A stretch of DNA of 64,000 nucleotides from Sulfuriferula sp. (GCA_013140765.1 JABFSE010000016.1:320-64319); one strand, 5' to 3'; positions 30,703-39,736 are shown, counted from the first letter of the stretch. Program-made: numbers and translations. Notes: a model not told the origin generated them from the letters alone.

Positions 30703-32955
30703 ATGATAGCCCAAGAACTCGAAGTCAGCCTGCATTTGGCTTTTATGGATGCGCGACAAAAACGCCACGAATTCATTACCATAGAGCATTTACTCTACGC
30801 CATGCTGGATAATCCATCCGCATCCGAAGTGCTACGTGCTTGCGCTGTCAATATAGAAACACTACGCCAACAACTGAGCGATTTTATTACCGAACACACG
30901 CCCACAGTGGCAGGCACTGAAGACATAGATACCCAGCCCACACTAGGTTTTCAGCGCGTTATTCAACGTGCTATATTGCATGTACAGTCATCGGGCAAAA
31001 AAGAAGTAACAGGCGCGAATGTGCTGGTGGCATTATTCGGTGAAAAAGACGCACATGCCGTATTTTTCTTAACCCAACAAGGTTTAACGCGACTGGATAT
31101 TGTCAATTACCTATCGCATGGCACGAGCAAAACTGAGCAAAGTGAGCCGCCCGCGCCTGAAACCAGCACCAACGAAGAAACCAGCACCCCTTCGGCATTA
31201 GATAGCTATACCAGTAATTTGAATACGCAAGCACTGGCAGGCAAAATAGACCCGCTCATCGGTCGCGCCGAAGAGCTAGAACGGGTGATACAAACTTTAT
31301 GCCGTCGCCGCAAAAACAATCCGCTATTAGTCGGTGAGGCAGGTGTAGGTAAAACTGCCATTGCCGAAGGTTTGGCACGCCGCATTGTTGAGGGCGATAT
31401 TCCCGACATATTAGCGACCAGTATCGTTTACTCTCTCGATATGGGCGCATTGTTAGCGGGCACTAAATATCGCGGTGATTTCGAACAACGCCTCAAAGCG
31501 GTGCTCAAACAGCTACAAGAAAACCCACACGCCATTTTATTTATTGACGAAATCCACACCCTCATAGGGGCAGGCGCGGCATCTGGCGGCACGCTAGATG
31601 CGTCTAACCTGCTCAAGCCCGCATTATCGTCGGGGCAATTAAAGTGCATAGGTGCAACGACTTACACTGAATACCGTGGCATTTTTGAAAAAGATCACGC
31701 ACTCTCGCGTCGCTTCCAAAAAGTCGATGTCAACGAGCCTAGCGTAGAACAAACCATCGCTATTTTGCGCGGCTTAAAATCACGCTTTGAATTGCATCAC
31801 AGCGTTAAATACACCGCATCGGCACTCACCACAGCCGCTGAATTATCCGCCCGCTATATTAACGACAGGCATTTGCCCGATAAAGCCATAGACGTTATCG
31901 ACGAAGCGGGTGCGGCGCAACGTATTTTGCCGAAATCCAAGCAAAAGAAAATTATTACCAAAAAAGAAATCGAAGAAATTATCGCCAAAATCGCGCGCAT
32001 TCCGTCGAAACACGTCAATAGTGACGACAGAGATGCACTCAAGCATTTGGCACGGGATTTGAAAACAGTGGTGTTTGGTCAAGACCCAGCCATAGCAGCA
32101 CTGGCTTCCGCCATCAAAATGGCACGTAGTGGCTTGGGTAACCCACAAAAACCCATAGGCTCGTTCTTGTTCTCAGGCCCTACAGGTGTAGGTAAAACTG
32201 AAGTTGCCAAGCAACTCGCCTACACGATGGGTATCAATTTAATCCGTTTTGACATGTCCGAATACATGGAACGCCATGCCGTGTCGCGCTTAATCGGTGC
32301 GCCACCTGGTTATGTTGGCTTTGACCAAGGCGGCTTATTGACCGAAGCGATTACTAAAACGCCTTACGCAATATTATTGCTAGATGAAATCGAAAAAGCG
32401 CATCCTGATGTGTTTAACGTATTACTACAAGTCATGGATCATGGCACACTCACTGATAATAACGGGCGTAAAGCAGATTTCCGCAATGTCGTTATTATCA
32501 TGACTACCAACGCAGGCGCAGAATCTCTGAGCAAATCGTCAATAGGCTTTACGCTAGGCAAACAAGTCGGCGATGAAATGGCGGAAATCAAACGCACATT
32601 TACGCCCGAATTCCGTAATCGTCTGGATGCCACCATCTCATTTGCGCCACTCTCGCAAGACATCATCTTGCGCGTAGTCGATAAATTCCTCATGCAGTTA
32701 GAAGACCAGCTCCACGAGAAAAAAGTCGATGCGCACTTCACCGACGCACTCAAGGCTTATTTGGGTAAAAAAGGCTTTGACCCACTCATGGGTGCGCGAC
32801 CTATGGCACGGTTGATACAGGACACCATACGGCGAGCACTCGCGGATGAATTGCTATTTGGTCGATTAGCCAACGGTGGCGAAGTAACGGTGGATATAGA
32901 TGAGCAAGAAGAGCTGAAATTAACGTTTACGGAAGAAGAAACACTAACTGTCTAA
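30703..32955 (+). CDS. clpA: ATP-dependent Clp protease ATP-binding subunit
   Basis: Two AAA+ modules: GEAGVGKT / FIDEIH and GPTGVGKT / LLDEIEK. Confidence 0.98.
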
Positions 32956-32961
32956 AACAGC

Positions 32962-33002
32962 AAAAAAGCACGCTGACAGCGCATACTGTCAGCGTGCTTT
33001 TT
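32962..33002. terminator. Bidirectional intrinsic terminator
   Basis: AAAAAAGCACGCTGACAG-CGCATA-CTGTCAGCGTGCTTTTT. Confidence 0.9.
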
Positions 33003-33012
33003 GTATAGCGCA

Positions 33013-35253
33013 TTAACCTACATGGCAATATCCACGCGCCAGCATAATCGCGTACTCATCGGCAGGCACTGGTCGGCTATAGTAATAGCCTTGTAACACA
33101 TCACAACCGTATTTCAATAAGAAATCACGTTGCTGATAGTTTTCTACGCCTTCGGCTACCACCGACAAATTCATCGCATGGGCTAATCGTATTGTTGCCG
33201 TCACTATCGCGGCGGCATCGTCACCGTCATGCTCTAAATCTTGGGTAAAAGAACGATCTATTTTTACCGCATCAATCGGAAAACGCTTCAAATAACTCAA
33301 GCTCGAATAACCCGTACCGAAGTCATCAATAGAAATATAGATTCCCCGTTGCTTCAGCGCAGTCAATGTATCCACCGTTAATTGGGCGTTACTCATGGCG
33401 ACACTTTCCGTTATTTCCAGCTCTAGCAAATTCGCAGGAATTTTCGTGTCATCCAATACCTTATCTATCATCAATAACAAATCTGGCTGTAAAAATTGAC
33501 GCATGGATAAATTCACCGCCACTCTTTGCACAAATAAACCCTGCTCACGCCAACGCTGCATTTGTTCACAGGCTACCCGCAATGTCCACGCACCCACCGG
33601 CAATATCAAACCTATGGATTCCAACACACCGATGAATTTATCAGGCTCGACCAAGCCTTTAGTTGGATGTCGCCAACGTATCAATGCCTCACAACCCACA
33701 ATACGCTCGCTGTTCGTGCTCACCTTAGGCTGATAATATAATTCAAACTGCCCCAACGACAACGCCAAGCGCAATGCATTTTCCAACCGTAGTTGCAGTT
33801 TAGCGTTAATATCCATACTACTATTAAAGAACATAAAACCAGCATTATTCCGCTTTGCCCTATACATCGCCGTATCTGCCTGACGCATCAATTCTTGCGC
33901 CACATTCGTGCGGCTAGATTTACTCAGCTGTTGCGTCACCGTTGCGTTTAATACTGCAATCCCGATACTGCCAGAGACCACATATTCATGCCCATGCAAA
34001 TTAACAGGCGCACGCATCGTATCCAGAATTTTTTGGGCAATAGCCGCAGCCGCATCCCGCGCTTGCAAGCCTGAAATCAATACGGTAAATTCATCCCCAC
34101 CTAAACGCGCAACAAAATCCTCACTACGCACGCTTTTTTTAATGCGCTGGGCAAACTCCTGCAATACCAAATCACCCATATCGTGACCCAAGGTATCGTT
34201 AATGTTCTTGAATCTATCTAAATCCATAAACAACAAAGCAATATCATGCCCATTGCGCTGCGTTACCTCAGCCATTTTTTCTAATTGCGTCAATAACGAA
34301 TTACGGTTAAGCAGACCTGTTAAGCCATCGTGATAAGCTATATCCAAATAACGCTGTTCAGCATGACCATGTTCGGCTAATGCTGCCGCGATTAAAAAAC
34401 CAGGCACGCTGATAATGACCAACACCGTTTGCAAATGCGCAACCTCAGTGTAAGGTATCGCCATTCCCAGCCACCTCGCCTCGCCCAATGTCAAGGCAAC
34501 AGCAATAGAGGCCGACGTTAATACCGTCATTGCCACGCCAAAACCACCTAAACGCAACGCCGCCCACACCACGAATGGAAATAATAAATGAAACTGCGGA
34601 TCAAAATTACGTAGCCCATACCACTGCAAATGCGGCAACACCACGACCAATATCATCAACAACAATAACAACATTGTTTCCGTAATTTGTTCACGCGTAG
34701 GCCTAGCCGCATAACAGGCATAAAACAGCATAATGGCGGGCGCAACCACTAAATTACCCACCATATCACCCAACCACCACACACCTAACGCGCTATATCC
34801 ACTTGAACTCGGCATATCGCCACTCACAATTAGCGCGACCACGCCTATGCCAGCAGCTAACAAGGCAGCCGCAGGTGCCGCCAGCATAGTCAGCTTAACC
34901 ACATCACTGATAGTATCTAATTGCGGACGAAACGTTTTATAGCTATTCAATAACAACCAAGCCAGCAAAGCAGCTAGGCTATCACCCACACCAAAAATAC
35001 TCGCCACGGGCAACGATAATGTAGCCACATTAGCCAGTAATTCACCGACAAAAATACCAGGCCAATAACGCCGCCCAAACAACACCAGCACCGCAATACT
35101 CGCACCACTGGCAGGCCAAATAGCACTGACATTGCCATGCACAAAAGGCGCTATCCACAAACCAAATTTTGCCAAACCTAGGTTAATTAGCGCAAACGCA
35201 ACCACCCCCCACCAATAGCGAGGCTGATGCAAATAGGCTGGTAAGCGCATCAT
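33013..35253 (-). CDS. MASE1-GGDEF-EAL c-di-GMP enzyme
   Basis: MASE1-like SAIWPASG...WPG membrane region, GGDEF with RxxD I-site (RSED), EAL and DDFGTGYSS intact. Start 35253 or 35250 (track 35265). Confidence 0.92.
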   Translation of the reverse strand: MMRLPAYLHQPRYWWGVVAFALINLGLAKFGLWIAPFVHGNVSAIWPASGASIAVLVLFGRRYWPGIFVGELLANVATLSLPVASIFGVGDSLAALLAWLLLNSYKTFRPQLDTISDVVKLTMLAAPAAALLAAGIGVVALIVSGDMPSSSGYSALGVWWLGDMVGNLVVAPAIMLFYACYAARPTREQITETMLLLLLMILVVVLPHLQWYGLRNFDPQFHLLFPFVVWAALRLGGFGVAMTVLTSASIAVALTLGEARWLGMAIPYTEVAHLQTVLVIISVPGFLIAAALAEHGHAEQRYLDIAYHDGLTGLLNRNSLLTQLEKMAEVTQRNGHDIALLFMDLDRFKNINDTLGHDMGDLVLQEFAQRIKKSVRSEDFVARLGGDEFTVLISGLQARDAAAAIAQKILDTMRAPVNLHGHEYVVSGSIGIAVLNATVTQQLSKSSRTNVAQELMRQADTAMYRAKRNNAGFMFFNSSMDINAKLQLRLENALRLALSLGQFELYYQPKVSTNSERIVGCEALIRWRHPTKGLVEPDKFIGVLESIGLILPVGAWTLRVACEQMQRWREQGLFVQRVAVNLSMRQFLQPDLLLMIDKVLDDTKIPANLLELEITESVAMSNAQLTVDTLTALKQRGIYISIDDFGTGYSSLSYLKRFPIDAVKIDRSFTQDLEHDGDDAAAIVTATIRLAHAMNLSVVAEGVENYQQRDFLLKYGCDVLQGYYYSRPVPADEYAIMLARGYCHVG

Positions 35254-35265
35254 TGCCAATATCAA

Positions 35266-35520
35266 CTAAGCAACATCGGCCTGTGCAATATGCGCCTGCA
35301 CTGCACTTAACGCATCTTGCAAAGTATCTTCACTCAATTCATTCAGCGACTCAGCCAATACTTCAGCCGCATTCAGGCTGGTTTCTGGCAATTTCGCACT
35401 GTCCATTTCAGCGACGAATACTGCCGCCGCACCGCTCACGCGTAGCAAACTATCGCGCTCGCGCATTAACATTTCAACCTCGTTACGCAGCATTGCAACT
35501 TCTTGTTGTGTTTGTGGCAT
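35266..35520 (-). CDS. Hypothetical acidic helical protein, 84 aa
   Basis: AAGGA RBS and tight spacing to both neighbours. No family recognised. Confidence 0.75.
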   Translation of the reverse strand: MPQTQQEVAMLRNEVEMLMRERDSLLRVSGAAAVFVAEMDSAKLPETSLNAAEVLAESLNELSEDTLQDALSAVQAHIAQADVA

Positions 35521-35538
35521 GTTGTTATCCTTATAAAA

Positions 35539-36654
35539 TCAGGTAAATAAAGTTAATACGCCCGTATAACCATACAAGCGATTATGTGAAATCTCGCCAT
35601 TGGCAAAGAACCCGACCAAGGGCACATCGCCCAAGACTTGTTGTATCAAGGCTAATTCGGCAGACTTAGCACCGAATAAACTTTCGCCCCGACCCAAGCA
35701 TGAATAATACACCGCACCACGTGGTCGTGCTGTTAAACGTGACTGCACGTCTGCCAGCATCGCTAACATATCCGCCTCTGCCGCAACCGCATCTCGTCGG
35801 CAAAACAACACCTCGGCCGCAGGTGGTATCACCTCACTAATCGCCACCAATCTATCCGTGGTATCCGCGCCGATTAAATTACGCACCAAATAATCACGAC
35901 TATCACAACCGGGGATGCTCAACGCCGCAAAAATATAACCCGCCGCACGACTCAAATCACGCGACAAAATCTCACCTATATCTTCGTACAACACATCTAA
36001 TGCAGGACGACCATCTAGCGTAATCAATATATTTTCCTGACTAGCCGTGACAACATGACGCGGGCCTATCGGCGTAACCCCTTGCGTCAAGCGAGTCACC
36101 ACGGCGACCGCCTCAGTAAACATCACCCCAGACAAGCCACCATGCACCACCTCATCCGCCACCTGCAACGACTGAAACCGCGAGCTACTTATACCACCCG
36201 TAATAAACCCAGTTACCATGCCCGCCGCTGTCGCTGTAATCAACTCAGGAATCTCGGCATTACGCGCATCGCCATGCACCAACGCGTAATAGGCAGGCTG
36301 TCCATGCACGGTAAATCCATCCAAATCTACAGCGACGCGATCCTCCTCCGTGACGGGCACAAATACCCGAAACGCATGTTCAGGAAATTCGCCCAACATC
36401 ACCACGACCGCCGATTCATCGAGATACTCATGCCCCGTCACGCACACGCCTATCCCTACCGAACCGACCCAATGCGCGACACCAGTCTGCTCACGCAACT
36501 GTGCCAGCATATCGCTCAAGCGATTCGCGTATAAATCAGTCACATAAATAAAGCCCAGATTTGCCGCCGCCGACACAGGTTGCAATTGCCGCACGCAATC
36601 CTGCACCGCCTCCATCCATTGCCCGATATTTGAGTGCGCATAGCCGAATGCCAT
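35539..36654 (-). CDS. FIST-N/FIST-C domain sensory protein
   Basis: GSVGIGVC, GGISS, TQGVTPIG, DYLVRNLIG, YYSCLGRG, GFFANGEI. Start MAFG at 36654. Confidence 0.88.
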   Translation of the reverse strand: MAFGYAHSNIGQWMEAVQDCVRQLQPVSAAANLGFIYVTDLYANRLSDMLAQLREQTGVAHWVGSVGIGVCVTGHEYLDESAVVVMLGEFPEHAFRVFVPVTEEDRVAVDLDGFTVHGQPAYYALVHGDARNAEIPELITATAAGMVTGFITGGISSSRFQSLQVADEVVHGGLSGVMFTEAVAVVTRLTQGVTPIGPRHVVTASQENILITLDGRPALDVLYEDIGEILSRDLSRAAGYIFAALSIPGCDSRDYLVRNLIGADTTDRLVAISEVIPPAAEVLFCRRDAVAAEADMLAMLADVQSRLTARPRGAVYYSCLGRGESLFGAKSAELALIQQVLGDVPLVGFFANGEISHNRLYGYTGVLTLFT

Positions 36655-36656
36655 AT

Positions 36657-37331
36657 TTATGCCGTCCTTGTCCAATTCGCATCTAACACCTTACGCATAC
36701 GCGCCGCCGCTTGCGGGCTGACACCAGGCACTTGCGCCAAGGTCTCAACATCTGCCGCAAACACGGCCGCCGCACCACCCAAATGATTCAACAATGCCTT
36801 TGCCATCGCCTCATTCACACCAGGCAAACCTTCGACCAAATAACGCTGACCATTCATAGGGTCAAACGGCTTACCATTACGCATCACCACAGGATGCCCC
36901 ATGCCGTGCTGTGCCTGATGCGCCATGGTATAAACAATTTCAGCGGTAAAGCCTGCACTAGGGCTAGGCACCAAAGGCACGCCTTGCATCACCGTCAACC
37001 ACGCGATTGCCTCGCGTATTGCCATCGGGTCAGTATGAAAACGCCCACCATAAATATCGCCTTCGACAATATAAATCACTTGGTCATAACTGGATTTGAG
37101 CTTGCCGACCTCGCTCATTAAACGCTTATCCATAATCGCCAAACTAAAATCTGTCGCCGACTTACGCTCCACCACCACGCCAGTCCCTAAATCGTAATCA
37201 CCACTATCCAACTCCGCCAACTGCAATGACAAACCCTTACAACTAGCAGGATAATCATGCCAATGTTGCAACACTGCCGATTTTTGTTCACGCGGATGAT
37301 AAGTAATCGTTGTTATTGCATCAGCCATCAT
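36657..37331 (-). CDS. ERCC4/XPF-type nuclease with tandem helix-hairpin-helix domain
   Basis: GDY-x8-ERKSATD catalytic motif, YIVEG, and C-terminal LPGV...VPGV (HhH)2. Confidence 0.85.
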   Translation of the reverse strand: MMADAITTITYHPREQKSAVLQHWHDYPASCKGLSLQLAELDSGDYDLGTGVVVERKSATDFSLAIMDKRLMSEVGKLKSSYDQVIYIVEGDIYGGRFHTDPMAIREAIAWLTVMQGVPLVPSPSAGFTAEIVYTMAHQAQHGMGHPVVMRNGKPFDPMNGQRYLVEGLPGVNEAMAKALLNHLGGAAAVFAADVETLAQVPGVSPQAAARMRKVLDANWTRTA

Positions 37332-37380
37332 CTATATACTCATTATTAAGTTAAAATTTCATTTTACGGAGTTACCCGCC

Positions 37381-37752
37381 ATGCGCCTATCGCTATTTAT
37401 ATTTACCCTGTTATCCATTAACGCACTCGCCGACACCGACCTCACAGGTACGCCTGTAGAATGGCGAGGTCAAATCACCCAACAATACCGCGCAGGCGAC
37501 GACACCTGCTTTGAATTAACGCGTAACACCCAACCACGCAACTTCACCACCTGCGTCTATGGCTATTATGATGCCACGCAATACGGCGCAGGCAAATGGT
37601 TAAACGTTGCGGGCTTATTAGCCGCCAACAGCACCCGCATTAGCGCGGCGCAAATCACCCTCACCGACGCACCATTACCCGCATACAGAGCCCCCATGGG
37701 CTATGGTTACCCACGTTATTACCAATACGACCCATTCTATCGCTATTACTAA
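37381..37752 (+). CDS. Slp-like exported protein
   Basis: Signal peptide, VEWRGQI...TCFE, GYYDATQYGAGKWLNVAG, aromatic Y/P-rich tail. No lipobox Cys. Confidence 0.5.
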   Translation: MRLSLFIFTLLSINALADTDLTGTPVEWRGQITQQYRAGDDTCFELTRNTQPRNFTTCVYGYYDATQYGAGKWLNVAGLLAANSTRISAAQITLTDAPLPAYRAPMGYGYPRYYQYDPFYRYY

Positions 37753-37804
37753 TCCAGCACATTTGCGGTATCCTTAGCCGTTTGTTAATACACGTTTGCA
37801 CATC

Positions 37805-38872
37805 ATGGGATTATTCGATTTTTTAGGCTTTAACAAATTACCTGCTGGCGTTACCAATGCCACCTTAGTCGTTACCGATGCCGCCACTTTGGCACGCGCC
37901 GAACAATTTATCAACGCCTTGCAAAATAAGTTTCGCAACGTCGCCATCGCACTGACAGACGCAACCGCCACGCCGCCTGCGCTACCGCACTTACAACTGC
38001 CAGACGACCTCACCGCCGCCGCACAGCGCATCACCAAATCGCAACCGCAACGGCTCATCATATTAGGCTTGGGTGAACAACATCTGCCCCTAGCACAGGC
38101 CGCAACGTGCCCACGCTACTGGCTCAACGCACGTGATGCCAATATCGCCCTAGCGGGCTGTGCGCTCATCAGCACCAGCAATGCTGATACACACATTACA
38201 GGCGCATTAGCCTTAGGCGATGCGTTGGTCGATTTAACCAGCTTGCCACACATCGCCAGCGATACCGAGATTTGCCTGCGCTTCAAAGAACAACACGAAA
38301 GCGAGCGTTGGCTAGGCTATTTTGCCGCCACAGGCGAAGACGAAGAAGATACCGCCTACGCCCTCTTCAGCCGCGCCATACGCCACAAAATGGGCATGAT
38401 GCTACTCGCCCCACGCGATCCAGCACGTTGCGAACCCGTCTATCGCGAATCCATACGCTACCGCTTGCAAACCATACGCCATGCCCGCTTTTCCACCTCA
38501 TTCGTCCCCTTAAAAACCCGCGTTTACTACATAGAACACGCCGAGCCTATTGCCAGCTTATACGGCTGTGTTGATTTCGTCGTCGTCGGCGCAACACTCA
38601 ACCAAAACGCCAAAAACACGCCCGACATCATCACCCCCATCCTCCATAACCGCCCCGTCATCGTCGGCACAGCACACCGTGAAAACCCACTACTCGCCGC
38701 CGCCATTACCGCAGGTATCGTTTGGGCGGGTGAAGATAACGAACAAATTTTCACCCACATCAAAACCATCATCGACACCCCAGAGCTAGGACAACAACGT
38801 GCCGAAAAAGCGCGTGCATGGCTAAATTTACAAGTCGGTGCAATGACGCGCGTGCTGGAAAAAATCACCTGA
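37805..38872 (+). CDS. Divergent WaaA/KdtA (Kdo transferase)-like glycosyltransferase
   Basis: Aligns by eye to WaaA: WLNAR, ATGEDEE, LLAPRDPAR, LYGCVDFVVVGATL, PVIVG, C-terminal GAMTRVL. Confidence 0.6.
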   Translation: MGLFDFLGFNKLPAGVTNATLVVTDAATLARAEQFINALQNKFRNVAIALTDATATPPALPHLQLPDDLTAAAQRITKSQPQRLIILGLGEQHLPLAQAATCPRYWLNARDANIALAGCALISTSNADTHITGALALGDALVDLTSLPHIASDTEICLRFKEQHESERWLGYFAATGEDEEDTAYALFSRAIRHKMGMMLLAPRDPARCEPVYRESIRYRLQTIRHARFSTSFVPLKTRVYYIEHAEPIASLYGCVDFVVVGATLNQNAKNTPDIITPILHNRPVIVGTAHRENPLLAAAITAGIVWAGEDNEQIFTHIKTIIDTPELGQQRAEKARAWLNLQVGAMTRVLEKIT

Positions 38873-38873
38873 C

Positions 38874-39212
38874 ATGCACCTCACCGCACTCAATGAATTT
38901 GATTTTCATCCCAGTTTAAGCCATAGCGCGGGGGTGAGCTTAGTGCTATTTACTGCGCCGCATTGCGGCAGTTGTAAAGCATGGTTACGGCTATTACAAA
39001 CGCTAGACACGCCGCTAATACAACATACCTACAGCGTTGATGTACAAATTGCCACCGCGCTGGCGCGAGAGTACGATGTATTTCATTTGCCCAGTTTGTT
39101 CTTGTTTGTGCATGGCCAATTCCATGCCCCATTACAAGCCGAAGCCAATCTCAACGCACTGATACAGGCAATCACCCATGCCCTTAACGCGCAGCCACAC
39201 GAAGAGCCATGA
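38874..39212 (+). CDS. Thioredoxin-family protein
   Basis: FTAPHCGSCK (CxxC), YDVFHLPSLFLF. Confidence 0.85.
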   Translation: MHLTALNEFDFHPSLSHSAGVSLVLFTAPHCGSCKAWLRLLQTLDTPLIQHTYSVDVQIATALAREYDVFHLPSLFLFVHGQFHAPLQAEANLNALIQAITHALNAQPHEEP

Positions 39213-39736
39213 ATATAGATGAACTAGGCATCGCCAGCCTAACCCGCTTTATCGCCTCCCCCAACTGCGATTTTCGTGCGCAAACAGCAGACATACGCCT
39301 TATCGTTATCCACAATATCTCATTACCGCCCAGCCAATTTGGCGGCATGGGCATTATTGAATTATTCACCAACCAACTCCATCCTGAGCAACACCTTTAC
39401 TACGCTGACATCGCACATTTACGCGTCTCCTCCCATTTCCTAATACGGCGCGATGGCGAGTTAATCCAATTCGTCCCCTGTAGCAAACGCGCTTGGCACG
39501 CGGGCTTATCTAACTGGCAAGGCTGGGATAGGTGTAATGATTTTTCTGTGGGAATAGAACTAGAAGGCGATGACTATAGTGCATTTACCGACGCGCAATA
39601 TCAACAACTCAACGCGCTGATTATCGCTTTGCAAAGCCGCTACCCCAACACCGCACTAACAGGACATAGCGACATTGCCCCAGGGCGTAAAACAGACCCA
39701 GGTCCTTATTTTGATTGGTCTAGGCTGAAAATATAA
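39209..39736 (+). CDS. ampD: 1,6-anhydro-N-acetylmuramyl-L-alanine amidase
   Basis: IVIHNISLPP, VSSHFLIRRDG, AWHAG, SVGIELEG, GHSDIAPGRKTDPG. Confidence 0.96.
   Translation: MNIDELGIASLTRFIASPNCDFRAQTADIRLIVIHNISLPPSQFGGMGIIELFTNQLHPEQHLYYADIAHLRVSSHFLIRRDGELIQFVPCSKRAWHAGLSNWQGWDRCNDFSVGIELEGDDYSAFTDAQYQQLNALIIALQSRYPNTALTGHSDIAPGRKTDPGPYFDWSRLKI

Follow-up and report, generated by a model that had tools for sequence, protein, structure and literature searches.

We examined a 64,000-nucleotide stretch of the genome of a Sulfuriferula sp. (GCA_013140765.1, JABFSE010000016.1:320-64319), referred to below as the window, which contains four genes lying head to tail on the minus strand. Open reading frame (ORF) calls, together with Pfam and NCBIfam searches, identified the products as an ERCC4 nuclease ending in a double helix-hairpin-helix, (HhH)2; a protein with FIST_N and FIST_C domains (FIST1); a small protein (p84); and a MASE1-GGDEF-EAL protein, i.e. 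an enzyme of cyclic di-GMP (c-di-GMP) metabolism. The features of this array are collected in Table 1.

Table 1. Features of the four-gene array and its borders, numbered from the first nucleotide of the window
Feature	Position	Strand	Length	Basis
ERCC4-(HhH)2, short XPF/Hef-type nuclease, first gene	36657..37331	-	224 aa	Pfam, PDB matches
FIST_N+FIST_C (FIST1), stand-alone, presumed cytoplasmic sensor	35539..36654	-	371 aa	Pfam
p84, helical protein without assigned family	35266..35520	-	84 aa	ORF, AlphaFold2 model
MASE1-GGDEF-EAL membrane protein	33013..35253	-	746 aa from ATG at 35253	Pfam
Bidirectional intrinsic terminator common to the array and the convergent clpA	32963..33002	.		Hairpin and T-run
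Divergent intergenic region between ERCC4 and a Slp-like 123-aa gene	37332..37380	.	49 nt	Sequence

As read from the sequence, the TAA stop codon of the ERCC4 gene is followed by two nucleotides (AT) and the ATG of FIST1, the TGA of FIST1 by 18 nt containing AAGGA and the ATG of p84, and the TAG of p84 by 12 nt and the ATG of the MASE1 gene. For the latter, the ORF finder had proposed a TTG abutting the p84 stop codon; the ATG at 35253 agrees better with the orthologues. The terminator hairpin (33002-32963; 18-bp stem, 4-nt loop, T-run on the minus strand) starts 10 nt past the last stop codon. It is the sole strong hairpin, the remaining terminator-like sites of the minus strand being stems of 5-13 pairs within coding sequence. 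A common strand, gaps of 2, 18 and 12 nt, no internal terminator and a single terminal one are the hallmarks of an operon, and the four genes are, judging from their spacing only, probably co-transcribed as one unit. Promoter-like sites were no commoner in the array than in shuffled sequence, and we claim no promoter; no convincing sigma-70 match was found in the 49-nt upstream region. As there is no other non-coding space upstream of the array, the promoter of the operon must lie in or beside this region. A Rfam scan of positions 32500-38000 revealed no riboswitch or small RNA, just sub-threshold matches over the terminator. We also considered that the locus might be a defence island, and dropped this reading because PADLOC matched none of the four proteins to a defence system.

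The ERCC4 protein matched Pfam ERCC4 (4e-19; 69.3 bits for a cut-off of 24) and HHH_5 (2.6e-9, residues 167-214). Its best sequence matches in the PDB were the XPF protein of Aeropyrum pernix (2bhn/2bgw) and the Hef nuclease of Pyrococcus (1j22), with E values of about 1e-19; it could be aligned to A. pernix XPF over residues 29-221 and to the (HhH)2 domain of Hef (1x2i) over residues 160-220. The catalytic motif GDY...ERKSATD (GDYDLGTGVVVERKSATD, residue 44) was kept in all 14 Sulfuriferula sequences examined and in two outgroups. With its GDXnERKX3D motif intact, the nuclease looks active. It shares with the short archaeal XPF and with the nuclease domain of Hef an ERCC4 core bearing this motif and a C-terminal (HhH)2, within about 220 aa. 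It differs from them in that its host is bacterial, that it has no PCNA partner, that its family is patchily distributed, and that it heads a signalling operon in this genus.

To our knowledge, FIST is among the least understood bacterial sensor domains, and the only stand-alone FIST proteins that have been studied, the haem/NO sensors of the NosP type, signal via a histidine kinase. FIST1 matched Pfam FIST (3e-26) and FIST_C (4.8e-23) over residues 39-364 of a 378-aa ORF and contained no further domain. No NCBIfam model matched it, and a PDB sequence search returned merely a weak match to FBXO22 (E = 0.008). We sampled 301 genomes of the order and found FIST1 orthologues (40-57% identity) in 91 of them, mostly as solitary genes. 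Four contexts outside the array were looked up; FIST1 was solitary in all four, with neither a histidine kinase nor a c-di-GMP gene. The neighbours of solitary FIST1 genes were often related to redox or stress: DJ-1 and TerB; an AhpD-like CMD-Rieske protein; GST; Hsp33, Hsp15 and MsrB. The residues invariant across the family include C20, H127, C285 and C319, which are absent from the second FIST protein of the genome (see below) and which are candidate ligand or redox residues. The FIST gene was split over two frames in one Sulfuriferula genome (G311, C45:31492-32630) and in one Thiobacillus-type contig (L192, 605-1698; see below), which may reflect a frameshift, a pseudogene or an assembly error.

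The small protein p84 belongs to no Pfam, NCBIfam or PADLOC family. Its AlphaFold2 model consists of three helices (pLDDT 91), and a fold search against the PDB gave nothing at E < 1, only generic helical bundles (best E = 1.2). Homologues were found in 120 of the 301 genomes, covering 49 of the 142 genera of the order; they are well conserved and, in nearly all genomes, present as a single copy. An alignment of 28 homologues contained 17 invariant columns, and the family (about 80-100 aa) is marked by invariant E21-R22, a G30-A-A-A33 core and an L59-N60 motif (window gene and loci L036-L041 and L119-L201). Elsewhere, the neighbourhoods of p84 are unlike the array: p84-patatin-TerC-Usp in Nitrosomonas, a divergent position relative to a Trx-TPR gene and DUF3025, or an alpha/beta hydrolase. 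p84 is a conserved resident gene of the Betaproteobacteria. The array context provides a first functional lead for this uncharacterised protein, which occurs in roughly a third of the genera sampled from the order.

The last gene encodes a protein with MASE1 (1e-31), GGDEF (7e-46) and EAL (8e-74) domains, as assessed with Pfam. In the GGDEF part, the sequence RSED-x5-GGDEF (residues 376-389) comprises an intact RxxD I-site and active site, and the EAL part contains EALIR (522), EITE (613), DDFGTG (643), KID (664), EGVE (701) and QGY (721). On the strength of these motifs, the enzyme looks active and is potentially a bifunctional c-di-GMP synthase and phosphodiesterase. It is encoded by one of 15 GGDEF genes and is the sole MASE1 protein of its genome at E <= 1e-10. 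This genome (2.18 Mb) is the smallest near-complete one of the genus; it has a single GGDEF-EAL match to the window protein at E <= 1e-100, compared with 7-14 in relatives of about 3 Mb.

We then compared the array across the 27 species genomes sampled from the GTDB family, all of which belong to the single genus Sulfuriferula. The p84 gene was found in 26 and the ERCC4 gene in 25 of these, and in every genome where both could be located they were neighbours on one strand. FIST was present in 20 genomes, in each case exactly between ERCC4 and p84. The ERCC4-FIST junction measured from -4 to +5 nt, ATGA overlaps included, in all eight FIST-bearing species examined, in which the FIST-p84 gap was 11-30 nt; two species had 12-15 nt, and three had 76-91 nt, between p84 and the MASE1 gene. 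No FIST at E <= 1e-20 was found anywhere in six near-complete genomes (G040, G094, G304, G306, G307 and G308); in these, ERCC4 was followed directly by p84, with a gap of -1 to 74 nt. FIST may either have been gained once or lost once within the genus, since the gaps between ERCC4 and p84 in the species without FIST showed no remnant of it and since the root of the ERCC4 tree, in which these species were weakly grouped, was not resolved. A full-length orthologue of the MASE1-GGDEF-EAL gene lay 3' of p84 in 15 of the 20 FIST-bearing genomes as against none of the six complete FIST-less ones. What lies between p84 and clpA varies: some species, G316 among them, have rfb-like genes there, G310 likewise has genes other than that of the MASE1 enzyme, and G320 has, after p84, just the last approximately 40 codons of the MASE1 enzyme (residues 693-734; L049, 8433-8559). 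This remnant is a deletion scar and shows that G320 lost the enzyme recently.

Gene order and tight spacing persist in other Sulfuriferula species whose array proteins have diverged to 49-90% identity, and the arrangement in this genome is therefore more than chance. These data bear out a preliminary description of the stretch, which had reported four minus-strand genes ending at a terminator and had read them as an apparent operon: the ORFs, domains, junctions and terminator are as it described them, and the tight spacing, the single terminator and the order kept among diverged relatives are those of an operon-like unit.

Further evidence on the FIST-p84 association was obtained by comparing, over the 301 genomes, where the matches to FIST1 and to p84 lie. 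The two genes were adjacent in three genomes outside Sulfuriferula (G238, G056 and G107). In G238, FIST (NCBI MBW8458530.1, from a metagenome-assembled genome labelled 'Thiobacillus sp.') is followed on the same strand by p84 and by a MASE1-GGDEF-EAL protein of 735 aa in which every motif is intact; the cluster has no ERCC4 gene and begins divergently from an alpha/beta-hydrolase gene. In G056 and G107, which belong to a third family, a YcgR-type PilZN-PilZ c-di-GMP receptor is encoded between p84 and FIST1. A scan of metagenome contigs centred on p84 gave 80 loci, of which 14 carried the Thiobacillus-type trio, four the Sulfuriferula-type arrangement and 62 p84 alone in the available flank; the FIST proteins of the 14 trio contigs were 78-91% identical to that of G238. 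In a tree of FIST1 sequences, the Sulfuriferula clade (support 99/100) was distinct from the clade of the trio (98/100), with solitary FIST1 clades among them and an unresolved backbone. The p84 proteins of the trio lineage were 55-57% identical to those of Sulfuriferula, and many solitary p84 genes were more similar to the latter, which makes a recent transfer of the cassette between the two lineages unlikely. A MASE1-domain search of the order showed that MASE1 adjoins p84 in Sulfuriferula and in G238 only, and in each case no other MASE1 protein of the genome passed the search threshold. The presence/absence co-occurrence of the genes in the 301 genomes (odds ratios 1.7-5.6) is subject to confounding by phylogeny, and we place no weight on it.

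The ERCC4 gene behaved differently from this recurrent group. True ERCC4-domain matches were found in 16 of the 301 genomes, with a patchy distribution. No FIST, p84 or MASE1 gene lay within about 8 kb of the nine ERCC4 loci outside Sulfuriferula, one of which had an unrelated PAS-type GGDEF-EAL gene about 4 kb away; nor was any of the three genes found in the flanks of three further metagenomic ERCC4 contexts, all of them solitary (convergent with TRAP transporter genes, or in a DpdA island). Five genomes outside the genus contain both ERCC4 and p84, on different contigs. A contig scan with the ERCC4 protein as query yielded one locus, with an ERCC4 identical to that of G316. We also noted that distant ERCC4 homologues (27-29% identity) adjoin a gene for a Cas4-Cas1 fusion, cas2 and a CRISPR array at two loci (L032, 8171-11557, in G235; L034, 6278-9212, in G104). 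A ThiF-family gene is found directly 5' of ERCC4 in G113 (L027, 7644-9062) and another directly 3' of p84 in a different betaproteobacterial metagenome-assembled genome (L038, 6001-7079); they may be the trace of an older common neighbourhood.

The reading that we favour, and to which we give about an even chance, is that the array forms a single transcription unit whose two parts differ in their history: a kinase-less FIST/p84/MASE1 module devoted to c-di-GMP and a lineage-specific addition, the ERCC4 nuclease. The most economical account of the distribution is that p84 is the resident gene around which FIST and MASE1-GGDEF-EAL genes have been repeatedly kept or assembled, and this argues for a working relationship among the three proteins. 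ERCC4 appears as an addition to the recurrent unit because it is linked to FIST and p84 in Sulfuriferula only, and it is probably a lineage-specific passenger. Soluble FIST, probably together with p84 as an accessory protein, would act directly on the membrane-bound MASE1-GGDEF-EAL enzyme, and this input would let a cytoplasmic cue, either a small molecule or redox-related, set the balance between making and degrading c-di-GMP. The ERCC4 protein would be an ordinary homodimeric structure-specific endonuclease of the XPF/Hef type, whose gene would have been inserted once, at the promoter-proximal end, in the ancestor of Sulfuriferula. It would now be translationally coupled to FIST and share its expression, with a function of its own that is independent of the signalling genes. 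In this scheme, the contacts between the proteins, the kind of signal and a nuclease that works independently are our inferences.

The link between a FIST protein and a c-di-GMP enzyme that the preliminary description had drawn recurs in a Thiobacillus-like lineage, a separate and unrelated group of sulfur bacteria, and a third family has a PilZ receptor between p84 and FIST. Its assignment of the sensor to the NosP type is not backed by gene context: we found no histidine kinase or response-regulator receiver (REC) gene in the array, its flanks, the four other FIST1 contexts, the Thiobacillus-type trio or the PilZ context, and most FIST1 orthologues are solitary. For the nuclease, it had offered two alternatives, a coupling of nitrosative or DNA stress to biofilm signalling and a chance fusion of operons; as ERCC4 is part of the unit in Sulfuriferula only, the second fits better. 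It had also proposed neighbourhood conservation as a check, with genes unlinked in other genomes as the outcome that would contradict it. This outcome was found for ERCC4 but not for FIST, p84 and the MASE1-GGDEF-EAL gene.

Stand-alone FIST-FIST_C proteins are known to feed c-di-GMP enzymes (PMC8846402, PMC12570481), and in the NosP paradigm such a protein controls a histidine kinase encoded next to it (PMC12570481). The systems made of NosP, NahK or NosK and a response regulator (Pseudomonas aeruginosa PA1975, Legionella NosP-NahK-NarR, Burkholderia pseudomallei nosRPK) resemble the array in pairing the gene of a c-di-GMP-metabolising protein with that of a stand-alone FIST_N+FIST_C protein of about 370 aa; as in the array, the output protein of Legionella, NarR, is moreover a GGDEF-EAL protein (PMC8846402, PMC12570481). 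Unlike them, the array has neither a histidine kinase nor a receiver domain, its output enzyme carries MASE1 as a membrane domain, and the gene of a small helical protein lies between those of sensor and enzyme; furthermore, FIST1 orthologues are mostly solitary and have their own invariant set of three cysteines and one histidine. Sensing by FIST is also tied to c-di-GMP hydrolysis in CdpA (PMC8846402), which is a single polypeptide, in contrast to the separate genes of the array.

Two other systems provide precedents for the proposed wiring. H-NOX is a soluble sensor encoded beside a GGDEF(-EAL) enzyme, on which it acts without a phosphorelay (PMC8846402). Shewanella woodyi H-NOX/SwDGC and Legionella Hnox1-Lpg1057, in which H-NOX is paired with a diguanylate cyclase or phosphodiesterase, would thus be wired, without a kinase, in the way that we propose for the array, with the differences that the sensor fold of the array is FIST rather than HNOB, that its enzyme is anchored in the membrane by MASE1 and that it has an extra small protein. 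In Escherichia coli, the soluble partners RdcA and RdcB act directly on the MASE1 domain of DgcE (PMC6510439), which would be analogous to the array in that two soluble proteins provide the input to a c-di-GMP enzyme via MASE1. RdcA/RdcB are, however, a dynamin-like GTPase and an accessory protein rather than FIST and p84, and DgcE has PAS domains and a degenerate EAL domain. The kinase-less FIST/p84/MASE1 cassette is a new form of a known sensor-to-c-di-GMP wiring. A recurrent cassette of this kind would offer a compact and testable three-protein system for asking how FIST passes on its signal and what MASE1 receives.

Several findings weigh against this two-part interpretation. The MASE1 domains of the two lineages are 30% identical, no closer than paralogues, and their orthology is not established. 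FIST1 and p84 are both present in 48 genomes of the order, about 40 of which keep them apart; 72 others have p84 without FIST1, and most FIST1 orthologues are not near any c-di-GMP gene. Within Sulfuriferula, FIST is kept in at least three species that have lost the MASE1 enzyme (G310, G316 and G320). This persistence and the mostly solitary occurrence of FIST1 indicate that the MASE1 enzyme is not the only partner or output of FIST. The p84-MASE1 gap of 76-91 nt found in three species leaves space for a separate promoter. Finally, the ERCC4-FIST junction is the tightest of the array and is kept throughout the genus at about 71% protein identity, which could mean more than hitch-hiking of the nuclease.

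A less probable explanation, which we nevertheless take seriously, is that there is no functional unit at all: ERCC4, FIST and the MASE1 gene would have accumulated by insertion beside a housekeeping p84 and then been inherited together, each working alone, and their common transcript would be incidental. This agrees with the four genes being independent and mostly unlinked across the order, with FIST being solitary elsewhere, with the piecemeal gain or loss of FIST and the MASE1 gene within the genus and with the variable, sometimes rfb-like, content of the slot before clpA. It does not account well for the same order of FIST, p84 and MASE1-GGDEF-EAL in a second lineage with a FIST of a different clade, nor for the PilZ receptor at the FIST-p84 junction of the third lineage; by our own estimate, the chance of finding two specific genes within about 1.5 kb of each other is about 1e-3 per genome. 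Furthermore, within the genus the MASE1 enzyme is found only where FIST is present.

The tight ERCC4-FIST junction would also fit a scheme in which FIST senses nitrosative or oxidative stress that damages DNA and controls both the XPF-type nuclease and c-di-GMP turnover, thereby coupling DNA repair to biofilm signalling. In all FIST-bearing species examined, the two genes are joined by an ATGA overlap, by an abutting stop and start or by 2-5 nt; the genes near solitary FIST1 are often those of redox or stress proteins (DJ-1, OsmC, Hsp33, Hsp15, MsrB, GST, AhpD-like CMD); and an unrelated FIST family lies directly 3' of another HhH repair enzyme, as described in the next paragraph. We nonetheless consider this integrated scheme distinctly unlikely. 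The linkage is confined to one genus and a single event accounts for it, ERCC4 is kept in six species that lack FIST throughout the genome, and the Thiobacillus-type module occurs without ERCC4. No LexA box (CTGT-N8-ACAG) was seen by eye in the 49-nt region, in which no pattern search was made. A functional tie between ERCC4 and FIST would, if true, be unexpected, and the evidence points the other way. For the nuclease part, the locus rather provides a caution, namely that a layout in which a repair enzyme heads a signalling operon can stem from one lineage-specific insertion.

The other case of a FIST gene next to a repair enzyme is the second FIST_N+FIST_C gene of this genome (FIST2, 362 aa; contig C10:53327-54412, locus L048, 6904-9066), located outside the window. 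FIST2 is 28% identical to the window FIST over the C-terminal half of FIST2. There is a 4-nt overlap between its gene and the end of nth, which encodes endonuclease III, and DUF1841 comes next. FIST2 was present in 56 of the 301 genomes, and all 30 of the best loci, which came from at least 11 of the order's GTDB families, had kept the arrangement nth-FIST2-DUF1841, at FIST2 identities down to 48%. Among the papers open to searching, none mentions DUF1841, or FIST together with endonuclease III. One may then imagine that FIST proteins are dedicated partners of HhH DNA-repair enzymes, of which ERCC4-FIST and nth-FIST2-DUF1841 would be two cases, the sensor reading a redox, nitric oxide or damage signal and tuning a repair nuclease or glycosylase; in Sulfuriferula, it would in addition relay the signal via p84 to the MASE1 enzyme. 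If true, this would tie DNA damage to whether bacteria of this genus adopt a biofilm or a motile way of life. The conservation of nth-FIST2-DUF1841 is the main support for this idea, which we regard as very unlikely. The nth gene of E. coli lies in the redox operon rsx, so that the neighbours of nth need not be repair genes; the same point tells against the use of FIST2 in favour of the integrated scheme.

Least probable of all is that ERCC4 and p84 are the true functional pair, the small protein either assisting the nuclease as a subunit or inhibiting it, and that FIST and the c-di-GMP enzyme were inserted later. This would fit the adjacency of ERCC4 and p84 on one strand in every placeable Sulfuriferula genome with or without FIST (at -1 to 74 nt in the FIST-less ones) but not the far wider distribution of p84 (120 genomes of the order as against 16 for ERCC4), the different contigs on which the two lie in the five outside genomes or the nuclease-free neighbourhoods of p84 elsewhere (patatin, Trx-TPR, DUF3025).

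On its upstream side, the array faces the Slp-like gene, which is its divergent neighbour in 12 of the 14 Sulfuriferula loci that were mapped. This gene opens a plus-strand block (37381-39736) that is conserved in this genome (G000) and in G226, and that encodes the Slp-like 123-aa lipoprotein, a 358-aa protein, a 112-aa thioredoxin and an AmpD-type amidase. The 358-aa protein, which has no Pfam match, bears a weak likeness to the C-terminal half of KdtA (Kdo transferase).

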